The translations under genes and the position numbers were made by a program. DNA of 64,000 nucleotides. It comes from Malacoraja senta. Lineage: Eukaryota. The stretch spans positions 12,464,001 to 12,528,000 of the forward strand of contig CM075992.1 in NCBI GenBank assembly GCA_038087875.1. The letters run 5' to 3'. The notes below the pieces were generated by a model, which searched no databases, was not told where the DNA came from, and was given only the letters and a program-made list of their open reading frames with translations. Position 1 is the stretch's first letter, and each line of letters starts with the position of its first letter. This document shows, in pieces, positions 1,288-47,096 of the stretch.

Positions 1288-1383
1288 ATCCCCAGATGTC
1301 CACAGTGGAACAGACCCAGGGATCGTTGACTGGAGAATCCATCCAGGATTCGGCTTCTGTCCCAGTGGGAGATACATCCTCAG
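1288..1383 (+). CDS. Ser/Thr/Pro-rich stalk exon type S3 (96 nt, phase 1-1) of the D8C-mucin array
   Basis: ttcctttattccAG|ATCCC...TCCTCAG|GTacc; encodes DPQMSTVEQTQGSLTGESIQDSASVPVGDTSS; paralogous to 35036-35131 and 39398-39493. Confidence 0.7.
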
Positions 1384-1553
1384 GTACCAAACCCTCTCAC
1401 ACATTTCCACTTGTCCTCATTAACCCTGTCATGGGTCATAGAGTGTTACAGTGTGGAAACAACTCGCCCACTGGCCAACATATTCCAGCCACACTAGCCC
1501 CACCTGCCAGCATTTGGTCCATATCCATCCAAACCTGTCCTATCCATGTACCT

Positions 1554-1703
1554 AGGTACACAAAAATGCTGGAGAAACTCAGCGGGTGCAACAGCATCTA
1601 TGGAGCGAAGGAAATAGGCAACGTTTCGGGCCGAAACCCTTCTTCAGACTGATAGGGGGTGGGGGGGGTGGGGGCGGGGAGAAGAAAGGAAAAAGGAGGA
1701 GGA
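1554..1703 (-). mobile_element. Penelope pseudo-LTR insertion running into the gap, with a minimal hammerhead-like motif
   Basis: Absent from the paralogous sites at ~35295 and ~39660. The minus strand of 1617-1652 reads CTGAAGAAGGGTTTCGGCCCGAAACGTT. Confidence 0.65.
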
Positions 1704-1903
1704 NNNNNNNNNNNNNNNNNNNNNNNNNNNNNNNNNNNNNNNNNNNNNNNNNNNNNNNNNNNNNNNNNNNNNNNNNNNNNNNNNNNNNNNNNNNNNNNNN
1801 NNNNNNNNNNNNNNNNNNNNNNNNNNNNNNNNNNNNNNNNNNNNNNNNNNNNNNNNNNNNNNNNNNNNNNNNNNNNNNNNNNNNNNNNNNNNNNNNNNNN
1901 NNN
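1704..1903. other. Assembly gap (200 N)
   Basis: Run of N. Confidence 1.
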
Positions 1904-2703
1904 AGTAATGTCTAGATTGTCGCCGGTGCCACGTGTTAGTGAGGGTAGGAACAGGAAGATAGATCAGATGAATGCGTGGCTGAGGAGTTGTTGCAGGGGG
2001 CCAGGGAAGATAGAGGTGGTGGTGGTGGTAAGTTGGAAGGAACTTCCAACCCCTCAACCCCCTCCCCACACACCCCCCTCCCGCACAACAGTGTCAAAGG
2101 ACGAAGGGCCTGTGTTCCAGTGCTAGACCTGCCCTTCAATTCCACTATACTCACATTTCTACTTGCCCTCCTCCCCTCTCCACACTGTCCCACATCCACC
2201 CTCCCCTGTGGTCCGCTCCCACCAATGGATTCCTGTCCCATCTCCCCAGACTCCCTCCTGCCACCTCCACCCTAATTCCAGACCTCCTCTCCCCCTCTCC
2301 CCTCCCAGCATCAACCTTCCAGACCTCCCCTCCCCACGCCCACCTGCCCCTCACTCCAGATATCCTCCTCGCCTTTTTCCAGCCTCCCTCCATCCCCCAA
2401 TTTCAAGCTTCCTCCCACAAACGCCTACTCCCCTTCTGATCCCTCTCCCCCACTACACATCCCCTTCCCCCCACTACACACCCCCTCCCGTCCATTTCAT
2501 ACCCCTTCCCCCAAATCCAGATGCCCTCCGCCCACTCACCCCAGATACCCTCCTCCCTCTCTCCCTCTCCAGATTTCCTCACCCCACACCCCATCCTCTC
2601 TCCTACTTCTCCTCGATGCCAATATTCCTCAAGTCACCGTGCCCTGCCCTTTCCCCACCAGCACCGACGTTTGGGATCAGAAAAATCATCTCTCCATCAA
2701 TAC

Positions 2704-5700
2704 CTGAGTTTGTATCTGGTTCTGGGACGGTGGACAGATCCTCCCGGGGTTCAGCTGTTGTTTCCTGGGGTTTGGGTGTTTCCTGGGGTTCGGCTGTTTC
2801 CTGGGCTTCCTCAGTTGGTACGGAGGCTGGATCTGTAATAAAATGTGGACAAACAGTGGGTGTAGTGTGGAAATAATCCAGCAGCTCTGCGGGATGGGAG
2901 CAGAGGGAAGTGCACGGCCGACACCAGTATCTGGTGACACCAACGGTCCAGCCCTCTCCTGCACCATGTATCCTCACCCCCCCAGTACATCCCACTCCAC
3001 AGTGGAGTGACCGTTACTGCCTCCCAGCTCCTCCACCCCACACACCTCACACATTGGGACCCGTCCCTGCGTCACTCCGCTCTGCTCCCCACTCCCTCTG
3101 CTCCTCACCCCCATCATTCCCGTCTTCATTCAATACTCCCCGTCCGTCTCTCTGCTCTCATTCCCCTCCGCTCGCCCCTCCCTGCCCTCTCACCTCCTCC
3201 TCGACCCTGCCTCTCCCTCACCCACCCTTTCCCTCTCTCTCACCCACGCACGTTCTCCCACCCGCTCTGTCCCTCTCCACCCTCTCCCTGCTTCCCCCTC
3301 ACCCGCCGGCTCACTCGGTCTCGTGGGAGGGGAGGGGATGGGTCATTCGTGGGACGTCAATACGTATAGCGCATAGCGCTCGTCCGATCAGTTTCGAACT
3401 GCTCTGCCAAGGTAAGGCAATTTTCACCGGGCCACTCTATAGCGTGCCCAGAGTAGCTCTGGAGGCGGCCGGGGGTTTGGGCCACCGCGGCAGCTCCATT
3501 GGAGCTAGAGTAAGAAGAATCTTTTGTGTCGCAGTTCGAACTCTCCACGGGAGCAGGCGGCTGATATTGTAGACCGCCGTGGGCTCCATAGGAGCTAGGA
3601 TTACGGCTGTTACCGGTTATGGCTCTGCACGGCAGCAGGCGGACAAAATTGGAGACCGCCGTAGGGAGGGGAGGAAGGGAATGGCCTGGACCTGGGGAGG
3701 AGAGATCCCTGGAGGAGGGGATAGGGAACGGCTAAGGTTGGTGTTCCAGGGGTGGGCTTGGTCCCGGGGGGGGGGGAGGAGAAGACTCGATCATTGGGGG
3801 GGGGGGTTACGGTGATATCTCGGTCCCAGGGAGGGGGTCCCAGGCTCGGTTCCACGGAGGGGGTCCCAGGCTCGGTCCTAGGGGACACAATGAGGGACAC
3901 TGCTGGTCAGTGGGAGTTATCACGGTGTATCTCAGTCCACAGATGATCGTCCCAGCCAAGTCATTGATACAGACTGTGACTCACCGGGGCCCAAGCACTG
4001 AGCCCTCTTGTACCCACACGGTCACTGCTGCCAACCTGAGAATGATCTGCTTATTCCCACCTGTGCCTCTGTCGAAAAGCCAATTCTCAATCCATGTCAG
4101 TGTGTGAACAATTCCATGTGCTCTGACCTTGTTGACCAGCCTCTTGTGCAGGAACGTACTAAATGCTTTCTGAAAACCCCCCAGCCCAGCCACTGGTTCC
4201 CTCATCTGTTCTACTGGACGTGTCCTCAATGTGCTCCAGGGACTGTGAAACCTGAAATTCCTTCCACAGCCCATATTGTCTCTGCTCAGTCCTAACAGTG
4301 ACACCGACTCCCTTCACTCGTAGTTCCCCATCACACAGGAGAACCACTGTGAACCCGGCAAGTTGATGGGAAAGTCCCAACGGAGCATGGGAGAGAGAAG
4401 GGAAGTTCCGATGCTGGAGCGAGGGGGGAGGGGAGATAGGTCCATGAGTGAGGGTCTTGCAGAGTGAGGGGGGGCGTGGAGGGGGCTGTGCGGTCAGGGA
4501 GTGAGGACTAAGCCAGGGTGAGGGTGGAAGTGCAGCGGTCTGAGCCAGGAGCGAGGTGGGTGGGGGGACGGGGTGGAGGAGCTGTGCTGAAGCAAAGATG
4601 GGAGGGGACGAAGCTGGGACCAGGGTGCGAGGGGAAGGGACAGGTCTAGGGGCAGGGGAAGAGGGGGGGGCAGTTAACCTGAACACTCAGTGTGTTGGTG
4701 ACGCGGGACGTCACAGAATATCTCCACAACACCAACTGCCTGTGTGACTGGGGAACGGGGACCTACCTGTACAATACACAGCGTCGGTGTAGGGTAACGG
4801 CCACAGCTGATACACAAAGTAACCGGTGCAGTTCTTCACCCTGATCTCCAGGTCCCTGTAGCAGATGTCACTGCCCACAGTGAAACAGACTAGCCTGGTC
4901 ACCTCCCCGTCTCCCACGCTGGGATGGCGACCTGGAATGAGGATTATAAACATTGTAAAATGTACCCGGTGCCACAGTGCGGTGGGGAATGTGAATGTGG
5001 AGCCAGTGTAAGGCAGTGATCACAAGCCACGGTCGGGTTTGACCTGCCTCAGTCAGCGGTGAGCTGCTGCCCTCACCCTCCCCACCCACACTCACCACAG
5101 CAGCCCCTGCTCCTGGTGCTGACGCCCTAGGGTGCCGGGGTCTGGACTGGAAACACCCCAATGGGTGCTGACAGCTGGTGATGAGCGGACATGAAAGGTT
5201 TAGAGGAACACTGGCCGAATTAGCTCAGATGGGACATCATGGTCGGCATGGGCCGAAGGGCCCATTTCTGTGCCCTGTGACATGACTAATTACAGTATAT
5301 AATGTATAGTTCAGCCTCATCGGAAATATCACTAGATTGCAATAATTTTAACCACAACACATCACGAACACTTCAATCACACATCATATGCACATTGTTG
5401 CTAAATGTTGTTTGTATTTAATTTCTCCGCCTCGTTACTGAACTGTGGGTGTCCTGAGACGGGCCCAGCTCCCTGGGAGCTGCTCCTCCACTGAAACTGC
5501 TCCGGCTCTGATCTGGAGCAGGGGCAACGAGCGGATGGGATCCGCAGCCCCACTATCGGGAAACTCCAGGAAGCTGGAGCTTCCCCACCGCACTCCGTGA
5601 GGATCCAGGGCCGGTGCGCGGTCTAAGTGACTATGGGGGAACATCTCAGGGAGTTTGTGTTCCGTGTCTGTGCGAGGGGCCCTCTGGAGAGATCTGGGTG

Positions 5701-6304
5701 GTCAGTCTGACCCTCCCGGACAATGACTGAGAGCATCTGTAGTAAACTCTGACCCTACCGTTTAACCAGACTGGGTACTCCCCGGAGCAGTGATTCACTT
5801 GAATGCCAGTCTCCGGAATCTTCCATCCACCGGAACTGAAACAACAATCAGAGAGTCAGCCCCTCAACTGAGGGAGTAGGTTCACCCAGGGAAAGACCCG
5901 GAATCAGGGCTATTCTGACCGCACCCCGTCCCGTTCAACATTCCCCGGAATCCAATGTTGTTTTCCCTCCGCTTCCGTCTTCCCCGGTCTCTCACTCCAC
6001 AATGTGGGATCTCCCCATTCTCAGTATTGATGCCCCGTCCCATTTTAGCAACTGATGATCACCATCTCCCTACATCTTCCCTTCACACGCCCCTCATTAT
6101 CCCGTTTACATTCTCCATCAGTGTCCAATTTCTCAGCAATGATCGCCTCACGTTACCTCTTAAATCTGTACCATCTCACTGTAAGGTTCCAATCACCCAT
6201 CGTTGTCCCACCGCTGCACTCAGTGTGGGAACAATCCGTGCTCCTCCAGGGCTGATCCAGGACGGTGTGGGTCACACACGGGTCACCGAGTGCGGAGTCT
6301 GTGG
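2704..6304 (-). CDS. Module A: uromodulin/GP2/OIT3-like D8C (D10C) domain plus mucin-like stalk; exons 6304-6157, 5835-5759, 4931-4767, 2832-2704 (173 aa, open)
   Basis: All introns are GT-AG with compatible phases. Spliced product: TDSALGDPCVTHTVLDQPWRSTDCSHTECSGGTTMGDWNLTVRWYRFKSSGGWKIPETGIQVNHCSGEYPVWLNGRHPSVGDGEVTRLVCFTVGSDICYRDLEIRVKNCTGYFVYQLWPLPYTDAVYCT-DPASVPTEEAQETAEPQETPKP... It matches the D8C motifs DPC..L..WRS, WYRF..GG, WLNG.HP, VK.C.G.YVY.L and YCT. Confidence 0.85.
3960..4225 (-). mobile_element. CR1 reverse transcriptase fragment (intronic; copies at ~19797-20070, 29890-30170, 36690-36975, 41735-42015)
   Basis: FQKAFSTFLHKRLVNKVRAHGI..LTWIENWL...GSVLGP. Confidence 0.75.
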
Positions 6305-10764: not shown

Positions 10765-13446
10765 CTGAGTTTGTATCTGGTTCTGGGACGGTGGACAGAT
10801 CCTCCCGGGGTTCAGCTGTTGTTTCCTGGGATTTGGGTGTTTCCTGGGGTTCGGCTGTTTCCTGGGCTTCCTCAGTTGGTACGGAGGCTGGATCTGTAAT
10901 AAAGTGTGGACAGACAGTGGGTGTAGTGTGGAAATAATCCAGCAGCTCTGCGGGATGGGAGCAGAGGGAAGTGCACGGCCGACAAGAGTCTCTGGTGACA
11001 CCAACGGTCCAGCCTTCTCCTGCACCGTGTATCCTGACACCCCCAGTACATCCCACTCCACAGTGGAGTGACCGTTACTGCCTCCCAGCTCCTCCACCCC
11101 ACACACCTCACACATTGGGACCCGTCCCTGCATCACTCCGCTCTGCTCCCCACTCCCTCTGCTCCTCACCCCCATCATTCCCGTCTTCATTCAATACTCT
11201 CCGTCCGTCTCTCTGCTCTCATTCCCCTCCGCTCGCCCCTCCCTGCCCTCTAACCTCCTCCTCGACCCTGCCTCTCCCTCACCCACCCTTTCCCTCTCTC
11301 TCACCCACGCACCTCTCCCACCCCCTCTGTCCCTCTCCACCCTCTCCCTGCTCCCCCTCACCCGCCGGCTCACTCGGTCTCGTGGGAGGGGAGGGGATGG
11401 GTCATTCGTGGGACGTCAATACGTCTAGCGCATAGCGCTCGTCCGATCAGTTTCGAACTGCTCTGCCAAGGTAAGGCAATTTTCACCGGGCCACTCTATA
11501 GCGTGCCCAGAGTAGCTCTGGAGGCGGCCGTGGGTTTGGGCCACCGTGGCAGCTCCATAGGAGCTAGAGTAAGAAGAATCTTTTGTGTCGCAGTTCGAGC
11601 TCTCCACGGGAGCAGGCGGCTGATATTGTAGACCGCCGTGGGCTCCATAGGAGCTAGGATTACGGCTGTTACCGTTATATCTCTGCACGGCAGCAGGCGG
11701 ACAAAATTGGAGACCGCCGTAGGGAGGGGAGGAAGGGAATGGCCTGCACCTGGGGAGGAGAGATCCCTGGAGGAGGGGATAGGTCTAGGGGCAGGGGAAG
11801 AGGGGGGGGGGGCAGTTAACCTGAACACTCAGTGTGTTGGTGACGCGGGACGTCACAGAATATCTCCACAACACCAACTACCTGTGTGACTGGGGAACGG
11901 ACACCTACCTGTACAATACACAGCGTCGGTGTAGGGTAACGGCCACAGCTGATACACAAAGTAACCGGTGCAGTTCTTCACCCTGATCTCCAGGTCCCTG
12001 TAGCAGATGTCACTGCCTACAGTGAAACAGACTAGCCTGGTCACCTCCCCGTCTCCCACGCTGGGATGGCGACCTGGAATGAGGATTATAAACATTGTAA
12101 AATGTACCCGGAGCCACAGTGCGGTGGGGAATGTGAATGTGGAGCCAATGTAAGGCAGTGATCACAAGCCACGGTCGGGTTTGACCTGCCTCAGTCAGCG
12201 GTGAGCTGCTGCCCTCACCCTCCTCACCCACACTCCCCACAGCAGCCCCTGCTCCTGGTGCTGACGCCCTAGGGTGCCGGGGTCAGGACTGGAAACACCC
12301 CGATGGGTGCTGACAGCTGGTGATGAGCGGACATGAAAGGTTTAGAGGAACACTGGCCGAATTAGCTCAGATGGGACATCATGGTCGGCATGGGCCGAAG
12401 GGCCCATTTCTGTGCCGTGTGACATGACTAATTACAGTATATAATGTATAGTTCAGCCTCATCGGAAATATCACTAGATTGCAATACTTTTAACCACAAC
12501 ACATCACGAACACTTCAATCACACATCATAAGCACATTGTTGCTGAATGTTGTGTGTATTTAATTTCTCCGCCTCGTTGCTGAACAGTGGGTGTCCTGAG
12601 ACGGGCCCAGCTCCCTGGGAGCTGCTCCTCCACTGAAACTGCTCCGGCTCCGATCTGGAGCAGGGGCAACGAGCGGATGGGATCCGTAGCCCCACTATCG
12701 GGAAACTCCAGGAAGCTGGAGCTTCCGCACCGCACTCCGTGAGGATCCAGGGCCGGTGCACGGTCTAAGTGACTATGGGGGAACCTCTCAGGGAGTTTGT
12801 GTTCCGTGTCCGTGCGAGGGGCCCTCTGGAGGGATCTGGGTGGTCAGTCTGACCCTCCCGGACAATAACTGAGAGCATCTGTAATAAACTCTGACCCTAC
12901 CGTTTAACCAGACTGGGTACTCCCCGGAGCAGTGATTCACTTGAATGCCAGTCTCCGGAATCTTCCATCCACCGGAACTGAAACAACAATCAGAGAGTCA
13001 GCCCCTCAACTGAGGGAGTACGTTCACCCAGGGAAAGACCTGGAATCAGGGCTATTCTGACCGCACCCCGTCCCGTTCAACATTCCCCGGAATCCAATGT
13101 TGTTTTCCCTCCGCTTCCGTCTTCCCCGGTCTCTCACTCCACATTGTGGGAACTCCCCATTCTCAGTATTGATGCCCCGTCCCATTGTAGCAACTGATGA
13201 TCACCATCTCCCTACATCTTCCCTTCACACGCCCCTCATTATCCCGTTTACATTTTCCATCAGTGTCCAATTTCTCAGCAATGATCGCCTCACGTTACCT
13301 CTTAAATCTGTACCATCCCACTGTAAGGTTCCAATCACCCATTGTTGTCCCACCGCTGCACTCAGTGTGGGAACAATCCGTGCTCCTCCAGGGCTGATCC
13401 AGGACGGTGTGGGTCACACACGCGTCACCGAGTGCGGAGTCTGTGG
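10765..13446 (-). CDS. Module B: D8C-like domain plus stalk; exons 13446-13299, 12977-12901, 12073-11909, 10893-10765 (173 aa, open)
   Basis: Same exon sizes (148/77/165/129), GT-AG sites, no stops. DAC replaces DPC; GWYRF is intact. Confidence 0.85.
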
Positions 13447-14112: not shown

Positions 14113-14139
14113 CTGCAGCTGTCTACATATGGACGACCT

Positions 14140-18539: not shown

Positions 18540-21500
18540 CTGAGTTTGTATCTGGTTCTGGGACGGTGGACAGATCCTCCCGGGGTTCAGCTGTTGTTTC
18601 CCGGGGTTTGGGTGTTTCCTGGGGTTCGGCTGTTTCCTGTTCTTCCTCAGTTGGTACGGAGGCTGGATCTGTAATAAAGTGTGGACAGACAGTGGGTGTA
18701 GTGTGGAAATAATCCAGCAGCCCTGCGGGATGGGAGCAGAGGGAAGTGCACGGCCGACACCAGTCTCTGGTGACACAACGGTCCAGCCCTCTCCTGCACC
18801 GTGTATCCTGACACCCCCAGTACATCCCACTCCACAGTGGAGTGACCGTTACTGCCTCCCAGCTCCTCCACCCCACACACCTCACACATTGGGACCCGTC
18901 CCTGCGTCACTCCGCTCTGCTCCCCACTCCCTCTGCTCCTCACCCCCATCATTCCCCTCTTCATTCAATACTCTCCGTCCGTCTCTCTGCTCTCATTCCC
19001 CTCCGCTCGCCCCTCCCTGCCCTCTCACCTCCTCCTCGACCCTGCCTCTCCCTCACCCACCCTTTCCCTCTCTCTCACCCACGCACCTCTCCCACCCCCT
19101 CTGTCCCTCTCCACCCTCTCCCTGCTTCCCCCTCACCCGCCGGCTCACTCGGTCTCGTGGGAGGGGAGGGGATGGGTCATTCGTGGGACGTCAATACGTC
19201 TAGCGCATGGCGCTCGTCCGATCAGTTTCGAACTGCTCTGCCAAGGTAAGTCAATTTTCACCGGGCCACTCTATAGCGTGCCCAGGGTAGCTCTGGAGGC
19301 GGCCGGGGGTTTGGGCCACCGTGGCAGCTCAATAGGAGCTAGAGTAAGAAGAATCTTTTGTGTCGCAGTTCGAGCTCTCCACGGGAGCAGGCGGCTGATA
19401 TTGTAAACCGCCGTGGGCTCCATAGGACCTAGGATTACGGCTGTTACCGTTATAGCTCTGCACGGCAGCAGGCGGACAAAATTGGAGACCGCCGTAGGGA
19501 GGGAAGGAAGGGAATGGCCTGGACCTGGGGAGGAGAGATCCCTGGAGGAGGGGATAGGGAACGGCTAAGGTTGGGGTTCCAGGGGTGGGCTTGGTCCCAG
19601 GGGGGGGGGGGAGGAGAAGACTCGATCATTGGGGGGGGGGGGGTTACGGTGATATGTCGGTCCCAGGGAGGGGGTCCCAGGCTCGTTCCCGCGGAGGGGG
19701 TCCCAGGCTCGGTCCCAGGGGGCACAGTGAGGGACACTGCTGGTCAGGGGGAGATATCACGGTGTATCTCAGTCCACAGATGATCGTCCCAGCCAAGTTA
19801 TTGATACAGATTGTGATTCACCGGGGCCCAAGCACTGAGCCCTCTTGTACCCACACGTCACTGCTGCCAAACTGAGAATGATCTGCTTATTTCCACCTGT
19901 TGCTCTTTGTCCAAAAGCCAATTCTCAATCCATGTCAGTGTGTGAACAATTCCATGTGCTCTGACCTTGTTGACCAGCCTCTTGTGCAGGAACGTACTAA
20001 ATGCTTTCTGAAAACCCCCCACAGCCCAGCCACTGGTTCCCTCATCTGTTCTACTGGACGTGTCCTCAATGTGCTCCAGGGACTGTGAAACCTGAAATTC
20101 CTTCCACAGCCCATATTGTCTCTGCTCAGTCCTAACAGTGACACCGACTCCCTTCACTCGCACTTCCCCATCACACAGGAGAATCACTGTGAACCCGGCA
20201 AGTTGATGGGAAAGTCCCAACGGAGCATGGGAGAGAGAAGGGAAGTTCCGATGCTGGAGCGAGGGGGGGAGGGGAGATAGGTCCATGAGTGAGGGTCTTG
20301 CAGAGTCAGGGGGGGCGTGGAGGGGGCTGTGCGGTCAGGGAGTGAGGACTAAGCCAGGGTGAGGGTGGAAGTGCAGCGGTCTGAGCCAGGAGCGAGGTGG
20401 GTGGGGGGACGGGGTGGAGGAGCTGTGCTGAAGCAAAGATGGGAGGGGACGAAGCTGGGACCAGGGTGGGAGGGGAGGGGACAGGTCTAGGGGCAGGGGA
20501 AGAGGGGGGGGCAGTTAACCTGAACACTCAGTGTGTTGGTGACGCGGGACGTCACAGAATATCTCCACAACACCAACTACCTGTGTGACTGGGGAACGGG
20601 GACCTACCTGTACAATACACAGCGTCGGTGTAGGGTAACGGCCACAGCTGATACACAAAGTAACCGGTGCAGTTCTTCACCCTGATCTCCAGGTCCCTGT
20701 AGCAGATGTCACTGCCCACAGTGAAACAGACTAGCCTGGTCACCTCCCCGTCTCCCACGCTGGGATGGTGACCTGGAATGAGGATTATAAACATTGTAAA
20801 ATGTACCCGGTGCCACAGTGCGGTGGGGAATGTGAATGTGGAGCCAGTGTAAGGCAGTGATCACAAGCCACGGTCGGGTTTGACCTGCCTCAGTCAGCGG
20901 TGAGCTGCTGCCCTCACCCTCCCCACCCACACTCCCCACAGCAGCCCCTGCTCCTGGTGCTGACGCCCTAGGGTGCCGGGGTCTGGACTGGAAACACCCC
21001 GATGGGTGCTGACAGCTGGTGATGAGCGGCCATGAAAGGTTTAGAGGAACACTGGCCGAATTAGCTCAGATGGGACATCATGGTCGGCATGGGCCGAAGG
21101 GCCCATTTCTGTGCCGTGTGACATGACTAATTAAAGTATATAATGTATAGTTCAGCCTCATCGGAAATATCACTAGATTGCAATACTTTTAACCACAACA
21201 CATCACGAACACTTCAATCACACATCATAAGCACATTGTTGCTAAATGTTGTTTGTATTTAATTTCTCCGCCTCGTTGCTGAACAGTGGGTGTCCTGAGA
21301 CGGGCCCAGCTCCCTGGGAGCTGCTCCTCCACTGAAACTGCTCCGGCTCTGATCTGGAGCAGGGGCAACGAGCGGATGGGATCCGTAGCCCCACTATCGG
21401 GAAACTCCAGGAAGCTGGAGCTTCCCCACCGCACTCCGTGAGGATCCAGGGCCGGTGCGCGGTCTAAGTGACTATGGGGGAACATCTCAGGGAGTTTGTG

Positions 21501-22145
21501 TTCCGTGTCCGTGCGAGGGGCCCTCTGGAGAGATCTGGGTGGTCAGTCTGACCCTCCCGGACAATAACTGAGAGCATCTGTAGTAAACTCTGACCCTACC
21601 GTTTAACCAGACTGGGTACTCCCCGGAGCAGTGATTCACTTGAATGCCAGTCTCCGGAATCTTCCATCCACCGGAACTGAAACAACAATCAGAGAGTCAG
21701 CCCCTCAACTGAGGGAGTACGTTCACCCAGGGAAAGACCCGGAATCAGGGCTATTCTGACCGCACCCCGTCCCGTTCAACATTCCCCGGAATCCAATGTT
21801 GTTTTCCCTCCGCTTCCGTCTTCCCCGGTCTCTCACTCCACAATGTGGGAACTCCCCATTCTCAGTATTGATGCCCCGTCCCATTGTAGCAACTGATGAT
21901 CACCATCTCCCTACATCTTCCCTTCACACGCCCCTCATTATCCCGTTTACATTCTCCATCAGTGTCCAATTTCTCAGCAATGATCGCCTCACGTTACCTC
22001 TTAAATCTGTACCATCCCACTGTAAGGTTCCAATCACCCATCGTTGTCCCACCGCTGCACTCAGTGTGGGAACAATCCGTGCTCCTCCAGGGCTGATCCA
22101 GGACGGTGTGGGTCACACACGCGTCACCGAGTGCGGAGTCTGTGA
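18540..22145 (-). CDS. Module C: D8C-like domain plus stalk; exons 22145-21998, 21676-21600, 20772-20608, 18668-18540 (173 aa, open)
   Basis: Same exon sizes, GT-AG sites, no stops; GHHPSVGDG variant. Confidence 0.85.
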
Positions 22146-23781: not shown

Positions 23782-23981
23782 NNNNNNNNNNNNNNNNNNN
23801 NNNNNNNNNNNNNNNNNNNNNNNNNNNNNNNNNNNNNNNNNNNNNNNNNNNNNNNNNNNNNNNNNNNNNNNNNNNNNNNNNNNNNNNNNNNNNNNNNNNN
23901 NNNNNNNNNNNNNNNNNNNNNNNNNNNNNNNNNNNNNNNNNNNNNNNNNNNNNNNNNNNNNNNNNNNNNNNNNNNNNNNNN
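23782..23981. other. Assembly gap (200 N); array orientation flips across it
   Basis: Run of N. Confidence 1.
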
Positions 23982-24142: not shown

Positions 24143-24271
24143 ATCCAGCCTCCGTACCAACTGAGGAAGCCCAGGAAACAGCCGAACCCCAGGAAACACC
24201 CAAGCCCCAGGAAACAACAGCTGAACCCCGGGAGGATCTGTCCACCGTCCCAGAACCAGATACAAACTCAG
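24143..24271 (+). CDS. Stalk exon type S1 (129 nt, phase 1-1); its D8C exons are not in this contig
   Basis: actttattacAG|ATCCAG...AACTCAG|GTattg; encodes DPASVPTEEAQETAEPQETPKPQETTAEPREDLSTVPEPDTNS. Confidence 0.8.
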
Positions 24272-27816: not shown

Positions 27817-30800
27817 CCACAGACTCCGCACTCGATGACCCGTGTGTGACCCACACCGTCCTGGATCAGCCCTGGAGGAGCACGGATTGTTCCCACACTG
27901 AGTGCAGCGGTGGGACAACGATGGGTGATTGGAACCTTACTGTGGGATGGTACAGATTTAAGAGGTAACGTGAGGCGATCATTGCTGAGAAATTGGACAC
28001 GGATGAGAATGTAAACGGGATAATGAGGGGCGTGTGAAGGGGAGATGTAGGGAGATTGGTGATCATCAGTTGCTGCAATGGGACGGGGCATCAATACTGA
28101 GAATGGGGAGTTCCCACATTGTGGAGTGAGAGACCGGGGAAGACGGAAGCGGAGGGAAAACAACATTGGATTCCGGGGAATGTTGAACGGGACGGGGTGC
28201 GGTCAGAATAGCCCTGATTCCGGGTCTTTCCCTGGTTGAACGTACTCCCTCAGTTGAGGGGCTGACTCTCTGATTGTTGTTTCAGTTCCGGTGGATGGAA
28301 GATTCCGGAGACTGGCATTCAAGTGAATCACTGCTCCGGGGAGTACCCAGTCTGGTTAAACGGTAGGGTCAGAGTTTACTACAGATGCTCTCAGTTATTG
28401 TCCGGGAGGGTCAGACTGACCACCCAGATCTCTCCAGAGGGCCCCTCGCACGGACACGGAACACAAACTCCCTGAGATGTTCCCCCATAGTCACTTAGAC
28501 CGCGCACCGGCCCTGGATCCTCACGGAGTGCGGTGGGGAAGCTCCAGCTTCCTGGAGTTTCCCGATAGTGGGGCTACGGATCCCATCCGCCCGTTGCCCC
28601 TGCTCCAGATCAGAGCCGGAGCAGTTTCAGTGGAGGGGCAGCTCCAGGAGCTGGGCCCGTCTCAGGACACCCACTGTTCAGCAACGAGGCGGAGAAATTA
28701 AATACAAAACAACATTTAGCAACTATGTGCTTATGATGTGTGATTGAAGTGTTCGTGATGTGTTGTGGTTAAAAGTATTGCAATCTAGTGATATTTCCGA
28801 TGAGGCTGAACTATACATTATATACTGTAATTAGTCATGTCACACGGCACAGAAATGGGCCCTTCGGCCCATGCCGACCATGATGTCCCATCTGAGCTAA
28901 TTCGGCCAGTGTTCCTCTAAACCTTTCATGGCCACTCATCACCAGCTGTCAGCACCCATCGGGGTGTTTCCAGTCCAGACCCCGGCACCCTAGGGCGTCA
29001 GCACCAGGAGCAGGGGCTGCTGTGGGGAGTGTGGGTGGGGAGGGTGAGGGCAGCAGCTCACCGCTGACTGAGGCAGGTCAAACCCGACCGTGGCTTGTGA
29101 TCACTGCCTTACACTGGCTCCACATTCACATTCCCACCGCACTGTGGCACCGGGTACATTTTACAATGTTTATAATCCTCATTCCAGGTCGCCATCCCAG
29201 CGTGGAAACGGGGAGGTGACCAGGCTAGTCTGTTTCACTGTGGGCAGTGACATCTGCTACAGAGACCTGGAGATCAGGGTGAAGAACTGCACCGGTTACT
29301 TTGTGTATCAGCTGTGGCCGTTACCCTACACCGACGCTGTGTATTGTACAGGTAGGTCTCCGTTCCCCAGTCACACAGGCAGTTGGTGTTGTGGAGATAT
29401 TCTGTGACGTCCCGCGTCACCAACACACTGAGTATTCAGGTTTACTGCCCCCCCTCTTCCCGTGCCCCTAGACCTGTCCCCTCCCCTCCCACCCTGGTCC
29501 CAGCTTCGTCCCCTCCCATCTTTGCTTCAGCACAGCTCCTCCACCCCGTCCCCCCACCCACCTCGCTCTGGCTCAGACCGCTGCACTTCCACCCTCACCC
29601 TGGCTTAGTCCCTCACTCCCTGACCGCACAGCCCCCTCCACGGCCCCCCTCACTCTGCAAGACCCTCACTCATGGACCTATCTCCCCTCCCCCCTCGCTC
29701 CAGCATCGGAACTTCCCTTCTCTCTCCCATGCTCCGTTGGGACTTTCCCATCAACTTGCCGGATTCACAGTGGTTCTCCTGGTGTGATGGGGAAGTACGA
29801 GTGAAGGGAGTCCGGTGTCACTGTCAGGACTGAGCAGAGACAATATGGGCTGTGGAAGGAATTTCAGGTTTCACAGTCCCTGGAGCACATTGAGGACACG
29901 TCCAGTAGAACAGATGAGGGAACCAGTGGCTGGGCTGTGGGGGGTTTTCAGAAAGCATTTAGTACGTTCCTGCACGAGAGGCTGGTCAACAAGGTCAGAG
30001 CACATGGAATTGTTCACACACTGACATGGATTGAGAATTGGCTTTTGGACAGAGAGCAACAGGTGGGAATAAGCAGATCATTCTCAGGTTGGCAGCAGTG
30101 ACGTGTGGGTACAAGAGGGCTCAGTGCTTGGGCCCCGGTGAATCACAATCTGTATCAATAACTTGGCTGGGACGATCATCTGTGCACTGAGATACACCGT
30201 GATATCTCCCACTGACCAGCAGTGTCCCTCACTGTGCCCCCTCGGACCGAGCCTGGGACCCCCTCCGTGCGACCGAGCCTGGGACCCCTCCCTGGGACCG
30301 ACATAGCACCGTAACCCCCCCCCCAATGATCGAGTCTTCTCCTCCCTCCCCCCCTGGACCAAGCCCACCCCTGGAACCCCAACCTTAGCCGTACCCTATC
30401 CCCTCCTCCAGGGATCTCTCCTCCCCAGGTCCAGGCCATTCCCTTCCTCCCCTCCCTACGGCGGTCTCCAATTTTGTCCGCCTGCTGCCGTGCAGAGCTA
30501 TAACGGTAACAGCCGTAATCCTAGCTCCTATGGAGCCCACGGCGGTCTTACAATATCAGCCGCCTGCTCCCGTGGAGAGCTCGAACTGCGACACAAACGA
30601 TTCTTCTTACTCTAGCTCCTATGGAGCTGCCACGGTGGCCCAAACCCCCGGCCGCCTCCAGAGCTACTCTGGGCACGCTATAGAGTGGCCCGCTGAAAAT
30701 TGCCTTACCTTGGCAGAGCAGTTCGAAACTGATCGGACGAGCGCTATGCGCTAGACGTATTGACGTCCCACGAATGACCCATCCCCTTCCCTCCCACGAG

Positions 30801-31449
30801 ACCGAGTGAGCCGGCGGGTGAGGGGAAGCAGGGAGAGGGTGGAGAGGGACAGAGGGGGTGGGAGAGGTACGTGGGTGAGAGAGAGTGAAAGGGAGGGGTG
30901 AGGAGAGGCAGGGTCGAGGAGGAGGTGAGAGGGCAGGGAGGGGCGAGCGGAGGGGAATGAGAGCAGAGAGACGGACGGAGAGTATTGAATGAAGACGGGA
31001 ATGATGGGGGTGAGGAGCAGAGGGAGTGGGGAGCAGAGCGGAGTGACGCAGGGACGGGTCCCAATGTGTGAGGTGTGAGGGTGGAGGAGCTGGGAGGCAG
31101 TAACGGTCACTCCACTGTGGAGTGGGATGTACTGGGGGTGTCAGGATACATGGTGCAGGAGAGGGCTGGACCGTTGGTGTCACCAGAGACTGGTGTCGGC
31201 CGTGCACTTCCCGCTGCTCCCATCCCGCAGAGCTGCTGGATTATTTCCACACTACACCCACTGTCTGTCCACACTTTATTACAGATCCAGCCTCCGTACC
31301 AACTGAGGAAGCCCAGGAAACAGCCGAACCTCAGGAAACAGCTGAACCCCAAGAAACAGCCGAACACCAGGAAACAGCCGAACCCCAGCAAACAACAGCT
31401 GAACCCAGGGAGGATGTGTTCACCATCCCAGAACCAGATACAAGCTCAG
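27817..31449 (+). pseudogene. Module D: D8C-like domain plus stalk; exons 27817-27964, 28286-28362, 29188-29351 (1-nt deletion), 31285-31449; frameshifted as assembled
   Basis: Splice sites are intact. Exon 3 is 164 nt rather than 165 (GTGGAAACGGGG versus GTGGGAGACGGGG), giving GRHPSVETGR*. This could be a consensus error. Confidence 0.7.
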
Positions 31450-32277: not shown

Positions 32278-33212
32278 TCCACAGACACCTCTGTCAAGCT
32301 TCTCAAGTTTGCGGACGACACAACCCTGATTGGACTGATCCAGGTTGGGGAGGAATCTGCCTACAGACAGGAAGTGTCACAGCTGGTGTCCTGGTGCCGT
32401 CGCAACAACCTAGAGCTCAATGCTCTTAAGAGAGTGAAATTGATTGTAGACTTTAGGAGATCTCCCCCTCCCCTCACCCCACTCACCATCAACAACACCA
32501 CAGTCACATCTGTGGAGTCTTTTAAGTTCCTGGGAACCATGATCTCCAAGGACCTTAAGTGGGGGGCTACCATCGACTCCACAGTCAAATAGGCACACAG
32601 AGGATGTACTTCCTACGGCAGCTGAGGAAGCACAATCTACCACAGGCAATGATGGTTCAATTCTACACGGCCATCGTAGAGTCTGTTCTCACCTTCTCCA
32701 TCATTGTCTGGTTTGGCTCAGCCACCAAACACGACATCCGGAGGCTGCAGCGAATCGTCCGATCAGCAGAGAAGATTATTGGCTGCAACCTTCCCTCCAT
32801 TGATGAACTGTACACTGCAAGGGCCAGGAAGCGAGCGGGCAAGATCATCTCTGACCCCTCTCACCCTGCCCACAAACTCTTTGAATAACTTCCCGCTGGA
32901 AAGCGACTCCGGATTGACAAAGCTGCCACAGCCAGACCTAAAAACTGTTTTTATCCAGGAGTAGTTGCTCCACTCAACAGCCAAAAATGTGTAGCCTCCC
33001 TTTGATCTGGTATTTAGTTGGTTCACATGCTTGATCAATGGTGTTTTATCATTAATGTTTTATTATTGTTAATGATTAGTGTTTTCTGAAACATTCGTAA
33101 CTGTCACTGTATGATCATGTTACTTGTGGGTGGAGCACCAAGGCAAATTCCTTGTATGTGAATATTTGGCTAATAAACTTACTTATTTACTTACTTACTT
33201 ACTTACTTACCT
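32278..33212 (+). mobile_element. 5'-truncated Rex1/Babar-type LINE (RT C-terminus, 3' UTR, (TTAC)n tail)
   Basis: SVKLLKFADDTTLIGLI..EESAYRQEV..LVSWCRRNNLELN, QRMYFLRQLRK, FYTAIVESVLT, DPSHPAHKLF; AATAAA followed by (ttac)n at 33172-33212. Confidence 0.85.
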
Positions 33213-33694: not shown

Positions 33695-33790
33695 ATCCAC
33701 CGTTGGACACAACTCTGGAACCCCAGGGAGCAGGGACTGGAGACTCTAGTCCGGGTTTAACTCGTGACCCAGCAGGGTCTGCAAGCTCAG
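33695..33790 (+). CDS. Stalk exon type S2 (96 nt, phase 1-1)
   Basis: Long pyrimidine tract ..ttcttccAG|ATCC...AGCTCAG|GTatca; encodes DPPLDTTLEPQGAGTGDSSPGLTRDPAGSASS. Confidence 0.7.
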
Positions 33791-33822
33791 GTATCAGTGG
33801 TGGGGAGCATGGAACAGAAAAA

Positions 33823-35035: not shown

Positions 35036-35131
35036 ATCCTCAGATGTCCACAGTGGAACAGACCCAGGGATCATCGACTGGAGAATCTGTCCAGGAACCG
35101 GCTTCTGTCCCAGTGGGAGACACATCCTCAG
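35036..35131 (+). CDS. Stalk exon type S3 (96 nt, phase 1-1)
   Basis: ttcctttattccAG|ATCC...TCCTCAG|GTacc; encodes DPQMSTVEQTQGSSTGESVQEPASVPVGDTSS. Confidence 0.7.
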
Positions 35132-35189
35132 GTACCAAACCCTCTTGCACATTTTCACTTGTCCTCATTAACCCTGTCATGGGTCATAC

Positions 35190-37760: not shown

Positions 37761-37961
37761 ATCCAGCCTCCGTACCAACTGAGGAAGCCCAGGACACAGC
37801 CGAACCCCAGGAAACAGCCGAACCCCAGGAAACAGCCGAAACCCAGGACACAGCCGAACCCCAGGAAACAGCCGAACCCCAGGAAACAGCCGAACCCCAG
37901 GAAACAACAACTGAACCCCGGAAGGATGTATCCACCGTCCCAGAACCAGATACAAACTCAG
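37761..37961 (+). CDS. Stalk exon type S1, expanded (201 nt, 67 aa)
   Basis: AG|ATCCAG...AACTCAG|GT; 7 QETAEP-type repeats. Confidence 0.75.
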
Positions 37962-39173: not shown

Positions 39174-39250
39174 ATCCACCGTTGGACACAACTCTGGAAC
39201 CCCAGGGAGCAGGGACTGGAGACTCTGGTCCGGGTTTAACTCGTGACCCA
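39174..39250 (+). pseudogene. Truncated S2 exon lacking its 3' end and splice donor
   Basis: Acceptor intact; reads DPPLDTTLEPQGAGTGDSGPGLTRDPH*; the donor was removed by a ~1.1-kb deletion. Confidence 0.65.
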
Positions 39251-39397
39251 CACTAACCCACACTATACTACACACAAGGAGACTGGATGATGCTGCTCTC
39301 TCCACAGAGCCAGTCCTCCAATTCCCAAACTCCGCTGACTGTCTGATGACCTGTTGTAGTGTTGCCACACTCCCGTGTCTCTGTTCCTTTATTCCAG

Positions 39398-39493
39398 ATC
39401 CCCAGATGTCCACAGTGGAACAGACCCAGGGATCATCGACTGGAGAATCCATCCAGGGACCGGCTTCTGTCCCAGTGGGAGACACATCCTCAG
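39398..39493 (+). CDS. Stalk exon type S3 (96 nt)
   Basis: DPQMSTVEQTQGSSTGESIQGPASVPVGDTSS, bounded by AG and GT. Confidence 0.7.
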
Positions 39494-39554
39494 GTACCAA
39501 ACCGTCTCACACATTTTCACTTGTCCTCATTAACCCTGTCATGGGGGTCATAGA

Positions 39555-42801: not shown

Positions 42802-43017
42802 ATTCAGCCTCCGTACCAACTGAGGAACCCCAGGAAACAGCCGAACCCCAGGAAACAGGAGAACCCCAGGAAACAGGAGAACCCCAGGAAACAGCCGAAC
42901 CCCAGGAAACAGCCGAACCCCTGGAAACAGCCGAACCCCAGGAAACAGCCAAACCCCAGGAAATAGCCGAACCCCTGGAGGATGTGTCAACCGTCCGAGA
43001 ACCAGATACAAGCTCAG
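42802..43017 (+). CDS. Stalk exon type S1, expanded (216 nt, 72 aa)
   Basis: actttattacAG|ATTCAG...AGCTCAG|GTgtcg (weaker donor); 8 QETAEP-type repeats. Confidence 0.7.
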
Positions 43018-44658
43018 GTGTCGATGTGGGGATTGTTGGAACAGGTTCTTCCCCCAAACCTCCAAGGGGGAGGGAGTGGGGGGAGGAGGCGGTTGGGAGT
43101 GGCGGGAAGGGGGTGTCGAGTGGTGGAGGGAGGGGAGGGAGGGGTCGATAGTGGGGGGGCGGGGGAGGGAGGAGGTTGAGAGAGTGGGGGGAGGGAGATG
43201 GCGTTTGGGAGTGGGGGGAAGGATGGGGGTGGGGAGGGAGAGGGGAAGATGGTGGTCGGGAATGGTGGGTTCGTGAGGGGGGAGAGAGTGTGCGGAGGGA
43301 GTGGGGGAGGTAGTGGGGGAGGGTGTTAGGAGTGGGGGTGAGGAGGGGGTGGGGAGGTCGGGAGTGTGGGGTTGTGGGGGTGGTGTGGAGTGAGGCGAAG
43401 TAGCAGAAGGGATCTGGGGAGTGGGTGTGGGAGCTGTTGGAGGGAGCGGAGCTCAGGGAGAATGGAGTTTGGGCTTCACGGCGAGGGGAGGAGTGGGGAT
43501 ATGGGCGGGGGTCGTGGATAGAGGGGCGGAGGGTTGTGGGGAGGGGGCGGAGGGTTGTGGGGAGGGGGGGCGGAGGGTTGTGGGGAGGGGGGAAGGGTTG
43601 TGGGGCGGAGGGTTGTGGGGAGGGGGCGGAAGGTTGTGGGCAGGGGGGCGGAAGGTTGTGGGGAGGGGGGCGGAGGGTTGTGGGGAGGGAGGCGGAGGGT
43701 TGTGGGGAGGGGGGAGGGTTGTGGGGCGGAGGGTTGTGGGGAGGGGGGGCGGAGGGTTGTGGGGAGGGGGAGGGTTGTGGGGAGGGGGGAGGGTTGTGGG
43801 GAGGGGGGAGGGTAGTGGGGGGGAGGGGTGTGGGGAGAGGGGTGGAGGGTCGGGGAGTGGGGCGGAGGGTTGTGGGGAGGGGGGGAGGGTTGTGGGGGGG
43901 AGGGGTGTGAGGAGGGGTAGAGGGTTGTGGGGAGGGGTAGAGGGTTGTGGGGAGGGGGAATAGGGATGTGGGCAGTAGGAATGTACGGGGTGAGCGGGGC
44001 CGTGGTGTGATGAGTGAGGGCTGCACCAAGTCTGTGAGATCGAAGATTGAAGAGTTTCAGACAGTCGGCCCTCCCCGACCCTCAGGATCAGTGATCCCAC
44101 AGCGTGGAGTGAGATCCTGACTCACCCCGAGGCAACAGAGACACAGTATCACTGCCCTGTGTAGCTGCCCAGTCAACACACACTGCTGGCCACAGCAGGA
44201 CTGCAGCAGAGAGTAAGGCCAATGGTCACTCTGGTGTCTCTGTTGCCAGTAGACATGGGCACAGTGGGCGAGGGTAATGACAGTCCTGACTCAAACACAG
44301 AAATGTGCATCCTAAAGAACACCAGGCTGCTGGTGCAGGAGCAACATGTGGCTCGGGAGTTTCCACTGAGTATCTCTGGTCTGGACATTTCCGGGCTGAC
44401 CCCTGGTGCAAGTGTGCTGAGGGGGACGGGAGGGGAGGTGGTACATATCTGCCCGCTCCACCTTCCCATAGAATCTCAGGGAACTGGGACCATCATCGTT
44501 TCAGGAGACGATTTGGCTCAGGACCTTCCTTCAGTCCCAACAAGAGACGTCACCTACCATGTCCTCCAGAGATGCTGCCTGACTCATTGATTTACTCCAG
44601 CAGTTGTGCCTTCCTTCGGTAAACCAGCTGTTCCTTGCGTCCCCTGTTTTTTTTTCAG

Positions 44659-44742
44659 ATCGAGCGTCTGGAAATGCCGCAGGAACCGCTGACTCAGCAT
44701 CCAACTACAAGAAACCTTCTAACGATCAGACTCATGATGAAG
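44659..44742 (+). CDS. Putative stalk exon type S4 (84 nt, phase 1-1)
   Basis: ttttttttttcAG|ATCGAG...GATGAAG|GTgaga; encodes DRASGNAAGTADSASNYKKPSNDQTHDE. Confidence 0.6.
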
Positions 44743-44964
44743 GTGAGAACTTTCCCTCTGTCCATAGAGGTTAAACGGCTCCCTCAGCCATGGTCCGTAA
44801 CACAAGCCTGTCGTTGTGGGACCCCCACGGCTCTGTACAGGGACACCTGGTAGCCAACACTGACTGACTCATCAGTGCTGAGGGTGGGTGAAAGAGTGGG
44901 GAGACACACAAATACACCTTCTCATCACACCTGCAACATACCATTGCATTTCTCTTTCCACCAA

Positions 44965-45625
44965 GGTTTCAAGGTCAGTTTCTTGTCACATGGACCAATT
45001 AAGGTGCAGTGAAATCCGAATTACCATCCAGCCATACTAAACAAAAAGCAACAAGACACACAAGGACATAAAAGTCAACATAAACATCTACCACTGCATT
45101 CTTCATGTTCCTCACGGTGATGGAAGGCTATAATGTCCAATCTTCCTCTGTATTCTCCTGCGTTAGGGGCTGTCGAACCATCCGCAGTCAGGGCGATCGA
45201 AGCTCCCGCAGTTGGCGGTCGAAGTCCCTGCGTCGGGACGATCGAAGCTGCCGTGTCGAGGCGGTCGTAGCTCCTGCTGCTTGGAGCTCCCGAAGTCGGT
45301 CCCTAAACAGAGACTGCGAGCTCCATGATGTTAAATTACACAGGCTCCTGTGGTTCAACCCCAAAGACAACCGCGACTGGGATCGCAAGCTCCGCGATGT
45401 TAAGTCCACAGGCTCCCGCGGTGGAGCTCTTGAAGTCGGTCTCCAGCAAAGGCCGCCAACACCTCGATGTTAGGTCGCAATGCGGACGCAGATACGGTAC
45501 GGAAAGAAATCGCATCTCCGTCGAGATAAGAGACTAGAAAAAGTTTCCCCCCCACATTAAACATGCTAAAGAACACTAAAAGCACACATTTAACACATAC
45601 AAACATACCACAAAGAAGGAAGGTA
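44965..45625 (-). mobile_element. Unclassified non-autonomous retroposon-like repeat (second copy ~47318-47975)
   Basis: The minus-strand end ttcactgcacctta..catgtgacaagaaactgaccttg resembles the Rex1-type tail at 7530-7570; CpG-rich core with gatcgaagctc repeats. Confidence 0.4.
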
Positions 45626-47012
45626 CAGACAGACTGCTGTTGTTTGACCAGCTGGGTATTTCCAGCATTTATGGGTTATATCACAGTATCTCGTCCACAT
45701 CCTCTGGGATGTTGTCCAGCTTTCTGTCAATCTGCATTCATTCTATTCACATGTGTTACAGTCCAGTGCCTGACAATCTCCACCACTGTGGGGCGGAGGG
45801 TTGTGGGGAGGGGGGCGGAGGGTTGTGGGGAGGGGGGCGGAGGTTTGTGGGGAGGGGGGAGGGTTGTGGGGCGGAGGGTTGTGGGGAGGGGGGCGGAGGG
45901 TTGTGGGGAGGGTTGTGGGGAGGGGGGCGGAAGGTTGTGGGGAGGGGGGCGGAGGGTTGTGGGGAGGGGGGCGGAGGGTTGTGGGGAGGGGGGAGGGTTG
46001 TGGGGCGGAGGGTTGTGGGGAGGGGGGCGGAGGGTTGTGGGGAGGGGGGGGTTGTGGGAGGGGGGGAGGGTAGTGGGGGGGAGGGTGTGGGGAGGGGGGT
46101 GGAGGGTCAGGGAGTGGGGCTGAGGGTTGTGGGGAGGGGGGGAGGGTTGTGGGGGGAGGGGTGTGAGGAGAGGGGTGGAGGGGTCGTGGGAGGGGTAGAA
46201 GGTTGTGGGGAGGGCAGAGAGTTGTGGGGAGGGGGGGAGGGGTTTGTGGGGGGGAGGGGTGTGTGCGGAGGGGGTAGAGGGTTGTGGGGAGGGGGGAGGG
46301 TTGTGGGGAGGGGAATAGGGATGTGGGCAGTAGGAATGTACGGGGTGAGCGGGGCCATGGTGTGATGAGTGAGGGGGTGCACCAAGTCTGTGAGATGGAA
46401 GGATTGAAAAGTTTCAGACAGTCGGCCCTCCCCGACCCTCAGGATCAGTGATCCCACAGCGTGGAGTGAGATCCTGACTCACCCTGAGGCAACAGAGACA
46501 CAGTATCACTGCCCTGTGTAGTTGCCCAGTCAACACACACTGCTGGCCACAGCAGGACTGCAGCAGAGAGTAAGGCCAATGGTCACTCTGGTGTCTCTGT
46601 TGCCAGTAGACATGGGCACAGTGGGCGAGGGTAATGACAGTCCTGACTCAAACACAGAAATGTGCATCCTAAAGAACACCAGGCTGCTGGTGCAGGAGCA
46701 ACATGTGGCTCGGGAGTTTCCACTGAGTATCTCTGGTCTGGACATTTCCGGCTGACCCCTGGTGCCAAGTGTGCTGAGGGGGACGGGAGGGAGGTGGTAC
46801 ATATCTGCCCGCTCCATCTTCCCATAGAATCTCAGGGAACTGGGACCATCATCGTTTCAGGAGACGATTTGGCTCAGGACCTTCCTTCAGTCCCAACAAG
46901 AGACGTCACCTACCATGTCCTCCAGAGATGCTGCCTGACTCATTGATTTACTCCAGCAGTTGTGCCTTCCTTCGGTAAACCAGCTGTTTCCTTGCGTCCC
47001 TGTTTTTTTCAG

Positions 47013-47096
47013 ATCGAGCGTCTGGAAATGCCGCAGGAACCGCTGACTCAGCATCCAACTACAAGAAACCTTCTAACGATCAGACTCATGATGAAG
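47013..47096 (+). CDS. Putative stalk exon type S4, duplicate
   Basis: Identical 84-nt exon bounded by AG and GT. Confidence 0.6.

Follow-up and report, generated by a model that had tools for sequence, protein, structure and literature searches.

A tandem array of D10C-like heads in the skate Malacoraja senta, likely the rear part of one gene for a secreted eight-head glycoprotein

Exons in the window and extent of the gene

The window, a stretch of 64,000 nucleotides from Malacoraja senta, contains four D8C/D10C-like modules (A, B, C, and D) along with a succession of acidic stalk exons. Each module consists of three exons that together encode a head of 130 aa. The first-pass annotation had described four three-exon copies, each with a stalk exon, and all were present where it had placed them (e.g. 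at 13446, 6304, 18540, and 10765). AG/GT ends were found on all head exons (148 + 77 + 165 nt) and stalk exons (129-165 nt) of the four copies, and unit A spliced in frame yielded 173 aa. The modules begin and end in phase 1 as proposed, but not every module starts with Ala, since module C opens with Val. No leader or terminal exon was found between the modules, in agreement with the same annotation, and ZP or membrane exons were likewise absent there.

Modules A, B, and C lie on the minus strand (1904-23781). Exons 1, 2, and 3 of module C occupy 21998..22145 (148 nt), 21600..21676 (77 nt), and 20608..20772 (165 nt), followed by a stalk exon of 129 nt at 18540..18668. Module B follows with exons at 13299..13446, 12901..12977, and 11909..12073 and a 129 nt stalk exon at 10765..10893, and module A with exons at 6157..6304, 5759..5835, and 4767..4931, the last of which matched Pfam D8C_UMOD (E 2e-4), and a 129 nt stalk exon at 2704..2832. 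The plus strand carries module D together with the stalk exon at 1288 and every stalk-only exon. The exon at 1288..1383 (type s3, 96 nt, phase 1-1) is the last stalk of an upstream block, and the stalk exon at 24143..24271 belongs to another repeat unit, the head of which is missing from the assembly. Module D has exons at 27817..27964, 28286..28362, and 29188..29351, the third being 164 nt long, one base short, and thus frameshifted in the assembly. It is followed by a stalk exon of 165 nt with an 18-nt internal repeat (31285..31449), and then by stalk exons of type s2 (33695..33790, 96 nt) and type s3 (35036..35131, 96 nt), a 201 nt exon (37761..37961), a truncated s2-type exon that has no donor site and is likely skipped (39174..39250), a second s3 exon (39398..39493), a 216 nt exon (42802..43017), and the last stalk exon, of type s4 (44659..44742, 84 nt). 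In a paralogue, the first exon of the C-terminal domain lies 4.5 kb beyond this last stalk exon. A second s4 copy (47013..47096, plus strand) sits at the end of the contig, within a duplication of 2.3 kb, and is likely an assembly duplicate. An ORF of 141 aa at 44165-44590 was considered as the terminal exon and rejected; it has no Pfam match, and a different exon comes next in the paralogues.

The strand switches coincide exactly with two 200-N scaffold gaps, at 1704..1903 and, where the strand switches back, at 23782..23981. These gaps bound the 21.9-kb contig that carries modules A-C. With modules on opposite strands, the four modules as assembled cannot splice into one protein, and the single-protein reading requires reversal of the middle contig. 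We conclude that this contig was probably scaffolded backwards. Strand switches between family exons fell at gaps in six of six cases for which the intervening sequence was examined. Stalk-then-head order was observed on one strand in a gapless contig of the same genome (C3461); database models from basking shark, white shark, and manta rays show this order as well.

Beyond the window the array continues with four more modules (U1-U4), a single leader exon that lies 97 kb upstream, and a single terminal exon that lies 24 kb downstream; the leader and terminal exons are both on the plus strand. U1-U4, which with the leader make up the upstream block, are four dissimilar heads in direct tandem, followed by stalk exons; heads C, B, A, and D then come with one stalk exon after each, and further stalk leads to the terminal exon, an acidic exon that closes with a stop codon. 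Within 264 kb there is one leader exon and one terminal exon, and this arrangement around the array suggests a single gene that spans about 185 kb and encodes eight heads. The window is thus likely the rear part of one plus-strand gene for a secreted eight-head glycoprotein, with a predicted product of about 1,900 aa when exon lengths are summed. The proposal of one multi-domain gene in place of separate genes is supported accordingly, while its direct splicing in the assembled order is not. The suggested search of the flanks recovered the leader, and exons for ZP, membrane, or GPI attachment were absent.

Elasmobranch relatives, stalks, and C-terminal domain

The locus is a member of an elasmobranch-wide, ZP-less family whose proteins have a signal peptide, 1-11 heads, a stalk, and a small C-terminal domain. 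Sharks or rays accounted for 54 of 61 matches. Head number is 8 at the locus, 1-5 among elasmobranch relatives, and 11 in a catshark model. In a fast tree, from a set that did not include the zebrafish omcins, elasmobranch heads grouped separately from the heads of teleosts and reptiles, except that one outsider was nested among them. RefSeq shark and ray models (e.g. XP_032879434.1, XP_055514970.1) share the leader, the head, the stalk-exon types, and the C-terminal domain, and their exon 3 identity is 79-91%. These models are automatic, have no described function, and are named uncharacterized, mucin-5AC-like, uromodulin-like, or GP2-like; the databases thus mislabel the family as mucin or leave it unnamed. 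RefSeq skate models have contiguous heads, whereas the locus in the window amplified a head-plus-stalk unit. We found no description of this elasmobranch family in the literature searched, with most subscription journals outside the search.

Sense-strand poly-A RNA from relatives was spliced at the predicted sites and showed 15 of 27 joints. The stalk-to-head joint was absent among these 15, which come from RNA of relatives only, at low depth and with the s2 and s3 exons uncovered. At most 24% of words were matched in any sequencing run, and none of the runs appears to come from the skate species itself.

The stalks consist of 26% Ser+Thr, 15% Pro, and 23% Asp+Glu. PF00100 (ZP) was found in none of the 54 elasmobranch relatives; the genome has at least 12 ZP matches, the nearest among the matches listed being 7.7 Mb away on the same scaffold. 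A hydrophobic tail segment was present in only two of 64 elasmobranch proteins. The gel-forming mucin domains VWD, C8, TIL, and cystine-knot were all absent from the family protein P0002, where Pfam matched only D8C. The C-terminal domain gave no Pfam match, no PDB match at E <0.01, and no Atlas match at 0.9. It was recovered in 39 proteins, all elasmobranch, by a word-limited search that is weak evidence for restriction to this group. Two types of the domain aligned unconvincingly (hhalign probability 13%), and in a monomer model (pLDDT 83) a single helix is flanked by extended segments that are unpaired. The domain may serve to oligomerise the protein.

In PMC11415648, zebrafish omc1-15 are described as having several tandem D10C domains in highly variable number and a lineage-specific gene expansion, short omcins of 200-600 aa are listed, and omcins are termed teleost-specific. 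The paper describes omc5 as induced by bacteria and protective against them and as carrying ZP and EGF domains together with a predicted GPI anchor, and the passages available report no selection test on omcins. Tandem heads in variable number, which the skate locus shares, were therefore already known from these teleost proteins. Unlike omc5 as described there, the skate locus has no EGF, ZP, or GPI features and instead carries acidic stalks, also between heads, and the small C-terminal domain.

Head domain, positive selection, and candidate function

Pfam D8C on exon 3 alone scored 21.8 bits (E 2e-4), below the cut-off of 27, and five of five spliced relatives exceeded the cut-off for Pfam D8C (PF23283) with 36-107 bits. 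The head matched GP2 at E 7.5e-23. A fold model (head pLDDT about 80-94) of P0003, a Leucoraja relative that stands in for the module of the window itself, resembled the GP2 decoy fold (Foldseek 7p6r, TM 0.87, rmsd 1.8 Å, about 42% identity). Together these results bear out the D8C/D10C identity assigned in the first pass. In the heads of the locus C2, C3, C6, and C9 are missing, leaving them short of the ten cysteines and five disulfides of the domain. Disulfides C1-C8, C4-C10, and C5-C7 are kept, as in the GP2/UMOD decoy module, C2-C9 and C3-C6 are lost, and a new cysteine pair is gained. C3 and C6 were absent in all 104 elasmobranch modules, and 28 of 32 shark modules retained both C2 and C9.

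To our knowledge, holding a glycan for FimH is the sole established job of a D10C domain. The mammalian UMOD/GP2 decoy module has one head, a beta-hairpin, a high-mannose glycan for FimH, a ZP filament, and GPI attachment (PMC8930769; PDB 7p6r). The skate locus differs in its eight heads, its lack of ZP, and the loss of this glycan apparatus, and the parallel to a FimH glycan decoy drawn in the first pass is not supported. The disulfide-bonded beta-hairpin before the D10C domain is absent, each head being preceded by a 7-aa cysteine-free linker, and all 8 heads have Thr and Gln at the GP2 N65 and UMOD N275 glycan sites. We regard as unlikely a glycan decoy or mucus scaffold like uromodulin/GP2, in which bacterial lectins bind sugars on heads or stalks and the head sequence is secondary. 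The shared fold, the Ser+Thr and Pro content of the stalks, the presence of other N-glycan sequons on the heads, and the retention of the GP2 N65 sequon in 40 of 104 elasmobranch modules, all from other species, speak for such a role. Against it stand the missing hairpin that protects the high-mannose glycan (PMC8930769), the absence of the N275 sequon from all 104 elasmobranch modules, and selection that targets amino acids in loops.

For head exons 1, 2, and 3, model M2a was favored over M1a with LRT values of 16.7, 19.7, and 59.3, and omega was 5-6 at 18-31% of sites; in neutral simulations (n = 30) the maximum LRT was 11.7. Divergence exceeded that of flanking introns in 108 of 136 pairs for exon 2 and in 115 of 136 pairs for exon 3. 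For exon 1 this held in just 38 of 105 pairs, and pN/pS was only 1.00. In stingrays and sharks, too, these same 20 positions are the variable ones. The selected positions are somewhat variable outside elasmobranchs too (1.87 vs. 1.26 bits), so part of the signal reflects loop tolerance. Judged by these sequence comparisons, strong positive selection acts on the loops that surround the lost cysteines. Their spatial clustering is deduced from the disulfide connectivity of GP2 and not from coordinates. Across sharks and rays, a D10C domain without the FimH glycan apparatus shows an arms-race signature on its protein surface.

With moderate confidence, we propose that a single gene encodes a secreted eight-head protein whose heads would bind foreign, probably microbial, targets through the selected loops. 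Three ancestral disulfides and one new cysteine pair would maintain the GP2 fold of the heads, and loss of C2-C9 and C3-C6 would free four loops at the formerly disulfide-rich end of the domain to form a variable binding face. U1-U4 would supply breadth and the four near-identical heads avidity for one target, spaced apart by acidic, likely O-glycosylated stalks. Without forming ZP filaments, such a protein could agglutinate or block microbes in body fluid or mucus. We favour a secreted, multivalent binder whose protein loops vary, likely active in mucosal defence, over a FimH glycan decoy. The protection against bacteria described for omc5 (PMC11415648) was counted for the defence reading, as omc5 is the nearest studied multi-head relative. 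More tentatively, elasmobranchs might have converted the UMOD/GP2 sugar bait into a germ-line variable binding domain, an undescribed innate recognition system of some twenty genes per genome.

Many gamete-recognition proteins are secreted, multi-copy, and positively selected. The head family shares these properties, and its rapid evolution would also suit a reproductive role (egg jelly, oviducal gland, seminal fluid, or sperm storage) with diversification by sexual selection or conflict. We consider this doubtful, as the studied D10C proteins UMOD, GP2, and omc5 act in epithelial defence (PMC8930769, PMC11415648), and diversification of paralogues inside one genome suggests many ligands. If the variable-binding reading is true, the family is a new natural binding scaffold in which secreted acidic stalks carry mixed or repeated heads. 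It is a direct test case for D10C as a protein-binding recognition domain and a candidate for the defence proteins in elasmobranch mucus, a poorly known group.

Repeat copies and assembly of the locus

Copies A-D differ by 1.9-3.4% substitutions, about half of them transitions, and carry private deletions of 240-920 bp. They were rejected as assembly duplicates on these grounds, in comparison with the 99.74% identity of a 13-kb duplicate that straddles a gap upstream. The exons of heads C, B, A, and D are 99% alike, and among A-C exons differ by 1.0% as against 1.9-2.4% over whole units. This low divergence supports the recent amplification that had been suggested.

Four exons at the locus are frameshifted in the assembly (U2 exon 1, D exon 3, and two upstream stalk exons), and these single-base losses are presumably consensus errors. 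The penultimate exon was searched for at the locus and not found; it likely lies in the 200-N gap at 48455..48654 or in a gap 21 kb past the window. That the locus is not one working gene, being either two genes with gap-hidden ends or a decaying copy whose inversion and frameshifts are real, would fit the opposite strands, the frameshifted, truncated, and missing exons, and the broken family copies elsewhere in the genome (C1242), but it is improbable given that both breakpoints are scaffold gaps with the same pattern at other family loci, that none of the 24 head exons has a premature stop by substitution, that A-C differ less in exons than over whole units, and that false duplicates are demonstrable at gaps in this assembly.

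An inversion via the SINE at 1554 was rejected, as the match stops where the SINE stops. The stalk exon at 24143 was considered as an overlap of unit A and discarded (3.3% substitutions); it differs by 2.7-3.3% from A, B, and C and so represents no overlap. Another contig, C2596, was dismissed as the other haplotype, its identity being only 88-95%. Gaps at the locus could hide a second leader and a second terminal exon. Arrays of this elasmobranch family are mis-scaffolded in current assemblies, and the locus serves as a warning.

Gene structure and assembly of the locus

The window (C16:12464001-12528000 of a 1.94-Gb genome) contains four three-exon modules (148, 77, and 165 nt), each encoding a D8C/D10C domain (hereafter head; A to D), as well as acidic stalk exons, all at the positions reported in the first-pass annotation and with AG/GT ends present. 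The best protein matches of these exons were from little skate and thorny skate, at 87-91% on exon 3, and the frame of unit A was open across its spliced exons (173 aa). A head together with the first stalk exon makes up the repeat unit, with the junction running from the post-stalk intron into the pre-head intron. The module copies are real: they carry 1.9-3.4% substitutions and private deletions, in contrast to the two sides of an upstream gap, where a 13-kb duplicate shows 99.74% identity. Exons of A, B, and C differ by only 1%. The 13-kb duplicate, which flanks a gap in intron 1 (L004-L006, some 94-67 kb before the window start), is an unmerged overlap.

The proposal that the modules splice into one protein held in part. 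The exons exist, but as assembled they do not share a strand: a 21.9-kb contig bounded by two 200-N gaps carries modules A, B, and C on its minus strand, whereas D and all remaining stalk exons lie on the plus strand. Exon 3 of D is one base short, and this base is present in contigs from relatives (three runs covering the place).

The whole gene was sought in 264 kb, comprising the window with 130 kb of upstream and 70 kb of downstream sequence. A single plus-strand leader exon lies at -96.8 kb relative to the window start, and a single terminal exon, likewise on the plus strand, at +88.5 kb. Four further plus-strand modules (U1-U4; 83-90% identity to A on exon 3) lie from -54 to -8 kb without stalk between them, and stalk exons run from after these modules up to position 1383. 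Strand changes among the family exons fell at gaps in all six cases where the intervening sequence was fetched (two at this locus, two in contig C3770, one in C3994, and one in C16 at 11.33 Mb; a seventh, in C1242, is outside this count), and we therefore infer that the middle contig is reversed. Read in this orientation, the locus is quite probably one gene of ~185 kb with eight heads and ~1,900 aa (summed exon lengths). In paralogues on contig C5 the gene ends with stalk exon type s4, a penultimate exon, and the terminal exon. The penultimate exon was not found at this locus, where two gaps sit at its expected place. The gapless contig C3461 of the same genome carries stalk exons and then a head. 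A 2.3-kb duplication at a contig end (window 43523-48453; 0.9% substitutions, 39 gap openings) doubles the s4 exon and is likely an assembly artefact.

Expression data came from runs of relatives. A poly-A run from a different species, read to about 6%, gave depths of 2-10 in exon bins, all on a single strand. Two of its reads spliced exon 1 to exon 2, three spanned the joint between exon 3 and stalk (GT..AG), and three connected stalk exons to each other. Stalk-to-head and head-to-head joints were absent among the 15 of 27 joints listed for relatives' RNA. The remaining three runs contain intron contigs and may be DNA.

Head fold and family

The heads are alignable to GP2 and UMOD, and a structure model of the Leucoraja relative P0003 matched the GP2 decoy structure with a TM of 0.87. 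With cysteines numbered as for GP2 in PMC8930769, the heads retain the pairs C1-C8, C4-C10, and C5-C7, lack C3-C6 and C2-C9, and have an extra pair in the loop preceding C2. C3-C6 is absent in 104/104 elasmobranch modules; both cysteines of C2-C9 are present in 28 of 32 shark modules and in none of the 72 from rays and skates. A fast tree places the skate heads of this type in a single clade (support 99.9).

Genome matches numbered at least 41 for exon 3 and at least 18 for the leader exon, although duplicates may have raised these counts. Searching with two heads matched 61 proteins of 347-1106 aa; 54 are shark or ray proteins, all lacking a ZP domain. Nor does any ZP match lie near the locus. 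The shark and ray proteins, all automatic gene models, share a plan of signal peptide, 1-5 heads, acidic stalk, and one of two small C-terminal domain types. Spacers of 39-184 aa separate heads in 7/64 family proteins (stalks in all four inspected), and two of the 64 have a hydrophobic tail segment. The family member P0059 (a Hypanus sabinus model) has a likely membrane helix followed by a short tail at its end, so the family may include membrane-bound forms. The Scyliorhinus torazame model P0092 has 11 near-identical, strongly basic heads in tandem, nearly without stalk. Coral and teleost models (P0050, P0055, P0057; some partial) have five D10C-like domains without a ZP match; ZP-less head arrays may thus have arisen outside elasmobranchs too. 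Contig C1242 (L036-L040) holds two broken, mirror-image head copies with stop codons and lost cysteines.

Teleost omcins, as described in PMC11415648, have tandem D10C domains in variable number and an antibacterial function; they keep EGF, ZP, and GPI, whereas the elasmobranch family is ZP-less. A bioRxiv preprint (10.1101/2025.05.09.653020) attributes UMOD avidity to ZP filaments and sheets. Among the papers listed by our literature searches, none described an elasmobranch family of this kind, lacking ZP and having altered disulfides and loops under selection.

Selection on the heads and possible function

Selection was analyzed in 15/27 copies of exon 1, 17/27 of exon 2, and 17/28 of exon 3. 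Excluded were four loci that are distant or broken, any exon containing indels or stops, and all but one of the four near-identical copies A-D. The pN/pS values were 1.00, 1.52, and 1.24 for exons 1, 2, and 3. Divergence exceeded that of intron flanks in 108/136 pairs for exon 2 and 115/136 for exon 3, and in only 38/105 for exon 1. Self-written codon models on fixed trees gave an overall omega of 1.4-1.9 and favored M2a over M1a (LRT 16.7, 19.7, and 59.3 for exons 1, 2, and 3). Thirty neutral simulations, of exon 3 only and half of them with heavy recombination, reached a maximum LRT of 11.7 and an omega of 0.72.

Twenty sites had a posterior over 0.95, in four segments near former C2, C3-C4, C5-C7, and C9, the former C3 and C9 positions included. 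These are also the variable positions in stingrays and mantas (51 modules; 2.30 vs 0.76 bits) and in sharks (32 modules; 2.09 vs 0.79 bits), with a weaker contrast in 13 outside modules (1.87 vs 1.26 bits). Because disulfides tie these segments together in GP2 and one of them bears the UMOD epitope binding antibody light chains (PMC8930769), the four segments probably form one variable face.

We see even chances that the product is a secreted multivalent binder whose heads recognize changing foreign targets via protein loops, with mucosal defence as its most likely role. A glycan decoy is unlikely: the parallel drawn earlier with the FimH decoy is not supported at this locus, where no head has the hairpin or either of the FimH glycan sites, although the N65 sequon is retained in 40/104 modules from other species. 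A reproductive protein carrying such heads has a somewhat smaller probability. Equally improbable is a split or decaying locus; the frameshifts in four of its exons, and in 7/82 head exons examined genome-wide, are mostly single bases and compatible with consensus errors, a pattern that is not proof in itself.

Repeats near the locus

A Gypsy-type LTR retroelement occupies window 48700-52700 on the minus strand, with protease, reverse transcriptase, RNase H, and integrase matches across several frames. A plus-strand LINE (55671-58870) has its endonuclease and reverse transcriptase in different frames, and an additional LINE fragment lies around 32300-33000. A 65-bp satellite (52994-54681, 58816-59315, and 59979-64000, continuing to about +84550) extends over ~25 kb and makes up most of the contig that separates the last stalk exon from the terminal exon; this contig may be misplaced.
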